A stretch of DNA of 64,000 nt, from positions 160,001-224,000 of the forward strand of contig CAVPHD010000003.1 in assembly GCA_963704165.1 (NCBI GenBank), read 5' to 3'. This document shows positions 1 to 4,479 of the stretch, piece by piece. Made by a program: the position numbers and the translations under genes. This DNA is from an uncultured delta proteobacterium (GTDB taxonomy: Bacteria > Myxococcota_A > UBA9160 > SZUA-336). Under the pieces are notes generated by a model. The model was not told where the DNA came from. It saw nothing but the letters and a program-made list of their open reading frames with translations, and made no database searches. Every line of letters begins with the position of its first letter. The first letter of the stretch is position 1.

Positions 1-1052
1 CTCGCGCGCGGTGCTCTTCCACGGCTACGTCGATCTCCGCACGCACGAGTACTTCCTCGCGCGCGACTATCCCGACATCGAGGTGCTCGAGCGGGTCTAC
101 CGGACGCTCGGCGCGAAGCCCGAGCCGCGCGCCGAGCTTCAGCGCGACCTGCGCATGGATCCCGACGAGCTCGAGCGCGTGCTCGAGAAGCTCTGGATCC
201 ACGGCGGCGCGATCGTCGATCCCGACGAGAACTCGGCCCGCGGACACGACCGTTGGCGCGAGCCGTACCAGGCGCAGCTCCGGCACAAGAAGACGCAGCT
301 CGACCAGATCCGCCGCTACGCCGAGAGCAACGCCTGCCGCATGCTGCAGCTCGTCCGGCACTTCGGCGACGAGGCGGACTCGGGCGCGGAGTGCGGAATC
401 TGCGACATCTGCGACGCCGGCAGCGCCGAGGCGCTCGGATTCGTCGCGCTCGACGCTGCGCAGGAATCCGCGCTGGAGCGGATCGTCGGCGCGCTTCGCG
501 CCCGCAACGGCCAACCCTCCGGAAAGCTACACCGCGAGGTGTTCGGTGACGCGCTCGAACGGCGCGAGTTCGGGCGGCTCGTCTCGGGGCTCGTGCGCGC
601 CGGCCTCGCGGTCGAGGAGAGCGAATCGTTCGAGCGCGATCTCGAGACGATCGCGTTCTCGCGGCTTCGCCTGACGCGGTCCGGGCTCGAAGCCGACGCC
701 GCGGCGCTCGCCTCCGTGCGGATCGAGCGCGAGAGCGAGCCGGAGCGTGCACCGCGCAAGCCGCGCGCGCGGGCAGGACCGCACACGCACACGCGCACGC
801 ACGAAGGTCCCGGCTGCGGACGCCGATCCGAGCATCGACGGCGCGCTGCTCGGCGCGCTGATGCGCTGGCGCGGCGCCGAAGCGAAGCGTCGGCGCATTC
901 CCGCGTTCCGCGTCATGACCAACGCCGCGCTCCAGGGCATCGCCTCGTCCCGGCCGAGCGACGAACGCGAGCTGCTCGCGGTGAAGGGCATCGGCCCCGC
1001 GCTCGCAGCCAAGTACGGTCCCGCCCTGCTCGACCTCGTGCGAGGCCGGTAG
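1..1052 (+). CDS. recQ: RecQ-family helicase, C-terminal part (Zn-binding RQC + HRDC); 5'-truncated by the window, +1 frameshift near 770-800
   Basis: ORF 11..1078 has CRMLQLVRHFGDE..CGICDIC (RecQ Zn module). ORF 747..1052 supplies the HRDC domain (LMRWRGAEAKRRRIPAFRVMTNAAL..VKGIGPALAAKYG). Confidence 0.85.
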
Positions 1053-2017: not shown

Positions 2018-2539
2018 CTAGAAGTCGCGCTCCATCACCGTGCGGCGTCCCTCGCGCATCGCGCTCTCGATCGCGTCGTCGCAGAGCCCGCGCAGCTTGT
2101 CGGAGAGGACCTCCATGACGGCGTCGGAGGTGCTCATGCCCGAGCGCTCGCGCACGTAGGATTTCAGCTTCGAGACCACGACCAGGACCTCGCGCTTCGG
2201 CTTGCTCGTGGCCGGTCGCGACGAGGGCACGATCCGGCGCTGCGGCTCGCGCACCGGCGCGGCTCCGGGCGCCGATGCCGGTGCCGACGCGCCCGCGGCC
2301 TCCTCCGCCTGCTCGCGGAGCCAGGCCTCGCGCGTCGGCGCGCGCCGCTCCTCGGCCCAGGCTTCGCGGTGGTTCATCAGCGGCAGATGGACGTCCCAAC
2401 ACGACGTCGAGCAGAACACGAGTCCCGTGCGCTTGCGGTTGCAGGTCGAGACGTTGCACACCCAGAAGGTCCTCGTGAAGCCGATCTCCTTCTTGCAACT
2501 GCTGCAGCGCCGCCAGAAGCTCGTACCCGCCTCACTCAT
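2018..2539 (-). CDS. Zinc-finger (ZZ-like) fused bacterial histone
   Basis: N-terminal CxxC..Cx4C..Cx3Cx3Hx5H; Ala/Pro linker; C-terminal [57 protein letters not shown] with the histone-fold R-T-V-x-x-x-D motif. Confidence 0.85.
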
Positions 2540-2683
2540 GCGTTCCCTCCGAAGTCCGCGCGATCCCGAGATGCCAGCATACTGCGATCGGCAGCACGCA
2601 CGCAGATCCGGCGCAGCTCTGGGTCATTCGTGCACGGGCGCGCGATCAAGTGCCATCCGCGGCGTTCCGATACCACTCGCGAC

Positions 2684-4000
2684 ATGATCGGGATCACCAT
2701 CGGAAGTTACGAGATCGCCGAGAAGATCGGCTCGGGTGGCGTCGCCGACGTCTACCGCGCCAGCGATCAGCTGCTCGGACGGAACGTCGCGATCAAATTC
2801 CTGCGCGAGGGTCTCGGCGATCGGCCCGAGGTCGTCGGGCGCTTCCAGACCGAAGCGCGGACGCTCGCCCAACTGATCCACCCCAACGTCGCGCTCTTGT
2901 ACTGCCTGCTTCGCGAAGGACCGCACCTGGGCATGGTGATGGAGTACGTCGAGGGACGGACGTTCGCGCAGCTGCTCGCAGCCTCCGGGCGCCTCGCGCC
3001 CGAACGCGCGCTGCCGCTCGTGCAGCAGGCGCTCGCGGGAATCGGTCATGCGCACGCGGCCGGCATCGTGCACCGCGACATCAAGACGTCCAACCTGATG
3101 CTCGCGACGAACGGCACGGTGAAGGTGATGGACTTCGGGATCGCGCGCTGTCTCGGCACGGATCGCGCGACGCGCCACGGTCACATGGTGGGGACGATGC
3201 AGTACATGTCGCCCGAGCAGGTACGCGGCGAGGAAACGGACGCACGCTCGGACGTGTACGCGCTCGGCGTCCTGCTCTACGAGCTGCTGAGCGGCGAGCT
3301 TCCCTTCGATTCGGACAACGACTACCAGCTCTGCCGGGCACAGATCGAGGAGCCGCCGCGGCCGCTGCGAATGCTCGTTCCGGACCTACCGGACTCGCTC
3401 GAAGCGGTGGTGGCGCGAGCGCTCGCGAAGGATCCGGCCGATCGGTTCGCCAGCGTGCACGAACTCGGCGATGCGCTTCAGAGCTCTTCTCGCCGCACCG
3501 CGGAGGCCCGCCTCACCGTCGATCGCGAAGCTCCCGTCACGCGCGAGCTCGCACTCGAGCAGGCCGAGCAGATCGCGCTCGCGGGCACGCGCTCCTTCAC
3601 GCCCACGGGCTCTTCACCCGCTCCGCGCAAGTCGACGGTCCGTGGCGCCGCAAACGTCCCCACCGATGTGGCGCCCGTCGAGGCCGAAACGGTCGTCGTG
3701 CCCGCGCCGCGCGCGTCTCGCCGCGGCAGGCTCGCCATCGTCGCCTGCGCGCTGATCGCGCTCGCGGTCGTGATCGGGGTGAATCTCGTGGGGCTCGAGG
3801 AGCGATCCGAGCCCACGCCGTCGATCGAGATTCGCGCTTCCGAGGCTGCGCCGGTGGGGCCGCCGATCGCGGTGCCACCGGCACTTCAGTCGGCAACGCC
3901 GAAGGCCGCTAGGTCTCTAGCTCCCAAGCCGACGGCCGCGGCCACGCAGACGCAGGAAGAGCCGCCAGGAGAAGCCAGTTGGGTCATCCGAAGGCGCTGA
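2684..4000 (+). CDS. Hanks-type Ser/Thr protein kinase with C-terminal TM segment
   Basis: [44 protein letters not shown]; hydrophobic [17 protein letters not shown]. Confidence 0.95.
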
Positions 4001-4479
4001 TCTCGGTTCTGGTCGCGCTCTCGTGCGCGGCCTGCGCGTCCCTCCCCGCTCCGCTCGACCGTCCGTTCCGCGCACCGGGCCAGAAGCTCGCCGACTTTCC
4101 CGAATCGGTGGCAGAGGAGTTCCTCTGCGCCGAGCAGACGCTTCCCTGGTTCAAGCTCGAGAAGGTCGAGATCTGGCCCAAGCGCGTGCGACCGGGCGGC
4201 GAAGTGGGTCACCGAATGGTGTACGTGCTCTGCACCGCCGGTCCGACCGAGGTCGTGACCGGCCGCCTCGAGATGAGAATCCTGTACCGGGGGAAACCGA
4301 TCGGCGGTGTCCCGGAGCCGACCTACGATCTGCGGCCGGGGCGCTGGGTCGTCGACGTGTTCGTCGCCGTTCCGCCCGAGGCGATCGACGGGCTCTACGC
4401 GCTCGAACTCGACTTCGAGAGCAGCGCCGTGAAATTCGCCGAGAGCGAGACTTTTGCCGTCGAGGCGGCCGCCAAGTAG
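3979..4479 (+). CDS. hypothetical lipoprotein
   Basis: hydrophobic signal plus lipobox-like CAAC; overlaps the end of the kinase gene. Confidence 0.65.

Follow-up and report, generated by a model that had tools for sequence, protein, structure and literature searches.

The closest described relatives of the protein discussed here are HBb (Bd0055), the histone of Bdellovibrio bacteriovorus, and the ZZ histones, a class with D0LYE7 of Haliangium ochraceum as its type, in which an N-terminal C4 + C2H2 finger precedes a C-terminal alpha3 histone resembling the bacterial dimer histones (PMC11390915). The class rests on predictions, alpha3 histones are defined by their shortened alpha2, and the ZZ histone of Bdellovibrio is weakly expressed, all according to the same paper. 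B. bacteriovorus has a longer second histone, Bd3044 (PMC10627809), which is probably its ZZ histone; the genes for Bd0055 and Bd3044 both peak late in the growth phase (10.1101/2025.09.24.678257). A review calls Bd3044 essential (PMC11318664), whereas the relevant passages of the primary work support essentiality for Bd0055 only. The literature searched, with most subscription papers outside it, contained neither a bench study of any ZZ histone nor a description of an internal start in such a gene.

The window (i.e. the whole stretch of 64,000 nucleotides that was analysed) encodes at 2018-2539, on the minus strand, a protein of 173 residues with an ATG start (P0002). The reading frame reported in the preliminary description is present, and the 57 C-terminal residues quoted there are exact. 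It is a real gene, because three signals coincide: a codon bias (GC of 0.92 at the third codon position versus 0.61 at the first and 0.57 at the second), a Shine-Dalgarno site GGAGG 7-11 nt 5' of the ATG (2546..2550, minus strand; duplex about -10 kcal/mol), and an excess of third-position changes among the finger codons of 10 genes from the same genus (130 differences, versus 40 at first and 46 at second positions). Searches for a sigma-70 promoter or a terminator gave no match. In a protein collection, 1900 of 2314 candidates are relatives at E <= 0.001 (among the best 120 of the list, all that carry a taxon name have a Myxococcota label), and when genome contigs were scanned, 308 of 349 stretches proved to be relatives, mostly with a Myxococcota or Bdellovibrionota label.

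The next gene downstream, after 45 nt and in the same orientation, codes for an alpha/beta hydrolase (1070-1972), while a Ser/Thr kinase gene (2684-4000, plus strand) is divergent from the histone gene. Together with an overlapping small gene, which has a lipoprotein-like N-terminus and is without a family match, the kinase gene occupies 2684-4479 (plus strand). The end of a RecQ-like gene lies at 2-1052 (plus strand); its HRDC domain is in another frame than its RecQ zinc-binding part, and the break surrounds a CACACG-type repeat near 780-805, which suggests a frameshift or an assembly error. A conserved operon partner or functional module was considered and rejected, as the neighbour order is common to only 7 of 80 related loci, all close kin: the hydrolase, lipoprotein-like and RecQ-like genes each recur in 7 of the 80, the kinase gene shows synteny in 7 as well, and 7 further, more distant kinases are found at other places in the loci.

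The C-terminal part (residues 116-173; 2021..2194, minus strand) is predicted to adopt the histone fold that had been claimed for it, of the Bd0055/HBb type, with a short alpha2, a one-turn alpha3 and the RD clamp R165-D172. The Bd0055 pattern given in the preliminary description is right: in a sequence search of solved structures residues 116-172 match HBb/Bd0055 (PDB 8cmp) at E 1.4e-9 and HLp at E 3.8e-6, with 27 of 56 residues (48%) identical between HBb and the histone part. In the AlphaFold2 model two helices (122-133 and 139-162) are followed by a one-turn alpha3 (pLDDT 85-97), and the model superposes on HBb (8fvx/8cmp) with an rmsd of 1.7 A (1.6-1.8). The proposed check against CBFD_NFYB_HMF (PF00808) failed, giving no match in one search and a match short of the cut-off in another (E 0.355), and Pfam/NCBIfam profiles offered no family name for the protein, the top rows being AAA_lid_3 (E 0.058) and an archaeal histone (E 0.017), both short of the cut-off. 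The full-length alpha2/alpha3 of archaeal nucleosomal histones is absent, since P0002 ends at F173 (NF043032 score 15.5 versus a cut-off of 50).

Ten HBb residues contact DNA in 9EZZ/9F0E (PMC11317129), seven of which are identical in P0002, the remaining changes being K52 to R, T8 to V and A25 to D. The HBb clamp residues R51, D49 and D58 correspond to R165, E163 and D172, so that the RD clamp is retained, and both the RKTxxxxD motif of the HBb type (R165-R166-T167...D172) and the basic alpha1 residues K124, K126 and R130 are present. K126, R165, T167, R171 and D172 are each kept in 88-89 of 90 relatives. The R and N that mark face-to-face tetramers (-6 and -2 from RxT) are missing in P0002, where S159 and E163 are found instead; 82 of the 90 relatives have D, A or E at the position of E163.

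The Cys/His-rich domain that had been noticed N-terminally is a finger of residues 8-66 (2342..2518, minus strand) with a basic loop R35-K36-R37 and a predicted ZZ-like two-zinc fold. Its ligands form a C4 site (C12, C15, C43, C47) and a C2H2 site (C28, C33, H51, H57). All eight ligands occur in 93 of 93 distinct fingers (loci L002-L112), a conservation that is overstated because 80 of the loci had been collected with finger patterns. Modelled alone, the finger reaches a pLDDT of 94. Foldseek gave no match at E <= 0.001 for this model, most top rows being ZZ domains, and in VIA-align the top places went to chains of RSC, Nbr1 and SAGA (Z 4.2-4.8), the matched ranges of RSC and SAGA being, we presume, ZZ domains. 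The ZZ domains of HERC2, p300 and ZZZ3 were all matched as well, at Z 3.7-4.0, which are low scores shared with other fingers: B-box and NosL (both 4.0) come within 1 Z of the best score of 4.8, and Bcd1 HIT (3.7) and ZMYM5 TRASH (3.5) are on a par with several ZZ domains. The low scores (best Z 4.8) and the ties with B-box, TRASH and HIT fingers would count against the finger part of the predicted fold. In profile searches, none of 79 fingers matches Pfam ZZ at E <= 0.1 and 7 of the 79 match zf-FCS weakly (best E 0.0055), while the ESM Atlas gave unnamed Myxococcota clusters and, at a value under 0.9, a hint of zf-FCS. Since ZZ domains lead the fold searches but no finger matches Pfam ZZ, 'ZZ' denotes a fold likeness here, not a sequence family.

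Between the two domains an Ala/Pro linker had been described, which accounts for part of the region: residues 84-115 (2195..2290, minus strand) are Ala/Pro-rich, low in pLDDT and predicted to be disordered, but the region also holds a predicted helix directly after the finger (residues 70-83; 2291..2332, minus strand; from the AlphaFold2 model and conservation) and a conserved RRIV motif (residues 101-104; 2228..2239, minus strand). Linker length varies among relatives, and [RK][RK][IVL][IVLA] is found in 76 of 140 distinct linkers, whereas 500 shuffles gave 3.3 on average and never more than 11 (the linkers are kin and thus not independent). Four finger-less histones (L225, L230, L231 and L234, in G134, G166, G206 and G190) retain an RRILV linker motif and apparently derive from ZZ histones.

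P0002 is almost certainly a ZZ-class histone (Schwab 2024): the assignment that had been proposed is borne out by the ligand spacing of the finger, the HBb-type histone fold and the ZZ-like finger model, and it adds an ordinary member to the published class, not a new kind. For D0LYE7 the ligands C20, C23, C36, C41, C51, C53, H59 and H65 are given (PMC11390915), and from these published positions seven of the eight correspond to those of P0002 at a constant offset of +8, whereas the eighth would be 55, not C53. The C53 of the legend to Fig. 4 of that paper (C43 in the HMM) is at odds with the CxxxC spacing that every relative examined shows and that leads one to expect C55; judged by these sequences, it is probably a slip. 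A fusion beside a free HBb is encoded in G228, where the free histone equals the solved HBb segment (by eye), which fits the longer Bd3044 (PMC10627809) and the weakly expressed ZZ histone (PMC11390915). Among 41 genomes of the class of P0002, 37 give a match, and in 33 of these the fusion is complete and uninterrupted in frame; the other four consist of one fusion split over two contigs, one finger alone and two histone matches only. At L032:2825-3154 (G026:C103, minus strand) a finger stands alone, the protein stopping just past the domain, and a Bd0055-type histone fold was not found anywhere in G026 (96% complete). Short fingers without a histone make up 70 of 150 finger representatives and are probably mostly fragments. 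Fusion of the finger to other domains was rejected, as the two longer matches look frameshifted and, by eye, the long non-histone tails in 14 of the 150 representatives look frameshifted or chimeric.

Following these results, it seems reasonably probable that P0002 is an HBb-like DNA-binding dimer whose basic finger directs an accessory histone to particular sites, although the parts of this explanation differ in strength. By analogy with HBb, the histone fold likely forms a homodimer that binds and bends DNA, which would occur without sequence preference. The predicted flexible linker would tether the finger, itself predicted to bind two zinc ions, to the histone fold, so that each dimer would carry two fingers. 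The finger has conserved basic residues (K16, R35, K36, R37 and R58), and with its basic surface it might grip nucleic acid (DNA or RNA) or else an acidic partner; that its ligand is polyanionic or acidic is a tentative suggestion from surface residues, and the basic RKR loop is not universal, as many fingers of the Bdellovibrionota type have other loops. Through such contacts the finger could direct the histone to its sites, and we infer, as had been proposed, that P0002 is a nucleoid protein with a Zn-finger interaction domain. An accessory role is supported by the weak expression of the Bdellovibrio ZZ histone, by two HU/IHF genes and a second histone in the same genome, and by neighbours common to only 7 of 80 loci. 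It is weakened by the strong Shine-Dalgarno site and by P0002 being the only Bd0055-type histone found in its genome, as is also the case in the 20 of 24 family relatives that have one.

The second histone bears on the stand-alone partner that was to be looked for. No free Bd0055-type gene was found in the genome (84% complete), but a stand-alone 70-residue histone of archaeal HMf length is present (P0122; G000:C4:271336-271545, i.e. L025:5337-5546, plus strand; PF00808 E 4e-12), near groES/groEL. It might pair with P0002 to give an asymmetric histone dimer with one finger, an explanation that we consider improbable, if the best of the alternatives. It could be widened, with equally little likelihood, to ZZ histones in general being the finger-bearing subunit of asymmetric bacterial dimers, the finger-less subunit then having a different source in each lineage, be it a separate Bd0055 gene, an internal start in the ZZ gene itself, a second fold fused in tandem or, for the genome of P0002, the archaeal-length histone. 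The distribution within the class argues for such a pairing, as the P0122 type occurs in 34 of 41 genomes (34 of 35 outside family f5 and 0 of 6 within it) and free Bd0055-type histones occur in f5 only (6 of 6); yet this exchange is a single family-level swap and therefore counts as one evolutionary event. G013, G014 and G016 (75-89% complete) have the P0122 type while no ZZ histone was found in them, the genes for P0002 and P0122 are unlinked, and the alpha2 of P0002 is four residues shorter than that of P0122.

Natural proteins with one finger on two tandem histone folds also favour the asymmetric dimer. They make up 7 of the 150 finger representatives (P0092, P0256, P0304, P0315, P0321, P0329 and P0345), and a further one is encoded in G032 (L023:3286-4026, G032:C87). 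A quick tree was built from 82 of 145 rows, after one duplicate and 4 rows that lacked a motif match had been set aside; on it the tandem form requires 4 changes, and a single origin is compatible with it as well.

A third point in favour is that some relatives have a ribosome-binding site and an ATG right before the histone fold, which could, as far as can be read from the genes, yield a free histone from the same ZZ gene. An in-frame ATG in the linker with a Shine-Dalgarno-like site was seen at L059, L063, L074, L080, L081, L095, L100 and L105, at L045, L049, L061, L064, L070 and L094, and at L071, L073, L092, L096, L108 and L110; such loci often have a weak 5' start, and the sites are lineage-restricted. 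In a Bdellovibrionota-labelled clade, all 8 genes read GAA AGG GA, two more codons and then the ATG directly before the histone fold, although AGG accounts for 5.6% of the Arg codons nearby. Each of these sites ranks only in the top 12-13% of control ATGs, while of six further linker sites five fall in the top 0-2% and the sixth in the top 8%. No second Bd0055-type match was found in the 14 genomes concerned (the clade of eight and six more).

That an internal start generally stands in for a free histone is nevertheless not supported. In an even sample of 55 ZZ histones from the phylum of G047, a linker ATG with a duplex of <= -4.5 occurs in 8, i.e. in 1 of 17 where a free histone is present, 4 of 24 with no other match and 3 of 14 that are unclear, which gives no clear tie; furthermore, ten genomes (G071-G080), none with a linker site at an ATG, likewise have a single Bd0055-type match. 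P0002 has no linker ATG, which counts against the asymmetric dimer here, and an internal start was rejected for it, since none of 10 genes of the same genus shares its one GTG (V96, duplex -5.8).

Slightly less probable still is that P0002 is not an accessory but a bulk chromatin protein of its lineage that takes the place of free Bd0055, its finger acting as a zinc/redox switch or as a second DNA-binding arm that bridges DNA. The two features that weaken the accessory role, namely the strong Shine-Dalgarno site and the single Bd0055-type histone found in the genome, speak for it, as does the fact that 33 of the 41 genomes of the class carry the complete fusion. The genome, however, also encodes HU/IHF and another conserved histone, finger-less derivatives exist, and the Bdellovibrio orthologue is expressed at a low level (PMC11390915).

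That the finger is a peptide reader like the eukaryotic ZZ domains, with a histone tail or an N-terminal degron as its target, is very unlikely, in spite of its fold likeness to the ZZ domains of p62, HERC2, ZZZ3, BIG and Nbr1. The acidic pocket with which p62 holds an N-terminus consists of D129, N132, D147 and D149 (PMC6098011), which map by ligand spacing to S13, K16, G39 and V41 of P0002, so that none of the four is kept and the finger is basic in this region, and Asp directly after the first ligand is found in 0 of 93 fingers and in none of the 146 pattern-fitting sequences among the 150 representatives. We infer that the finger cannot read peptides in the eukaryotic ZZ way, in line with the view stated for the class in PMC11390915, and the second histone, P0122, is without a tail that could be read. 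Least credible of all is a histone fold that merely dimerises the finger without binding DNA, the target then being RNA or the ribosome, for which a 71-residue chain of the archaeal 30S subunit (9fhl_a, possibly aS34) ties with ZZ domains (Z 5.3 and 4.1), but this chain superposes less well (rmsd 3.2-4.2 A, versus 2.0-2.3 A for Nbr1 ZZ) and the DNA-contact residues of the histone are near-invariant.

With the accessory, finger-directed histone as the preferred reading, P0002 offers sharper tests for the class through the residues that replace the ZZ pocket, the conserved linker motif and the natural proteins with one finger and two folds. Its lineage offers a further one, since the ZZ histone there occurs alongside a histone of archaeal length, not a free Bd0055. 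If P0002 and P0122 were nevertheless to pair, this would be a heterodimer across two histone classes within one bacterium; bacterial heteromeric histone dimers would then exist with a targeting module, which would bear on the origins of histone variants and readers, and the ZZ histone, as the finger-bearing subunit of an asymmetric dimer, would correspond in prokaryotes to a histone variant that brings its own targeting module.

Compared with known systems, P0002 has the architecture of the published ZZ histones, for which the eukaryotic ZZ pocket is likewise described as not conserved (PMC11390915). In B. bacteriovorus a ZZ histone stands beside a free Bd0055-type histone, whereas no free one was found in the genome of P0002 (84% complete). 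The histone part resembles HBb/Bd0055 (8cmp, 8fvx, 9ezz, 9f0e) in its short alpha2, one-turn alpha3, RD clamp and seven of ten DNA contacts; HBb, however, is an abundant stand-alone protein of 64 residues, while P0002 has an extra 115 N-terminal residues of finger and linker and an Asp at the position of A25. The face-to-face histones HLp and HTkC (9qt0, 9f2c) share the alpha3-truncated fold (Z 7.0-7.2), but at the tetramer positions -6 and -2 before RxT they have R and N, and P0002 has S159 and E163. The finger, finally, shares its C4/C2H2 ligand order and predicted overall fold with the eukaryotic ZZ domains of p62, HERC2, ZZZ3, p300, BIG and Nbr1 (Z 3.7-5.0, rmsd 2.0-4.7 A over 48-56 residues), and differs from them in the S/K/G/V that replaces the acidic pocket and in having CxxxC instead of CxxC at ligands 5-6, a spacing that also occurs in FCS/TRASH, HIT and MYND fingers.
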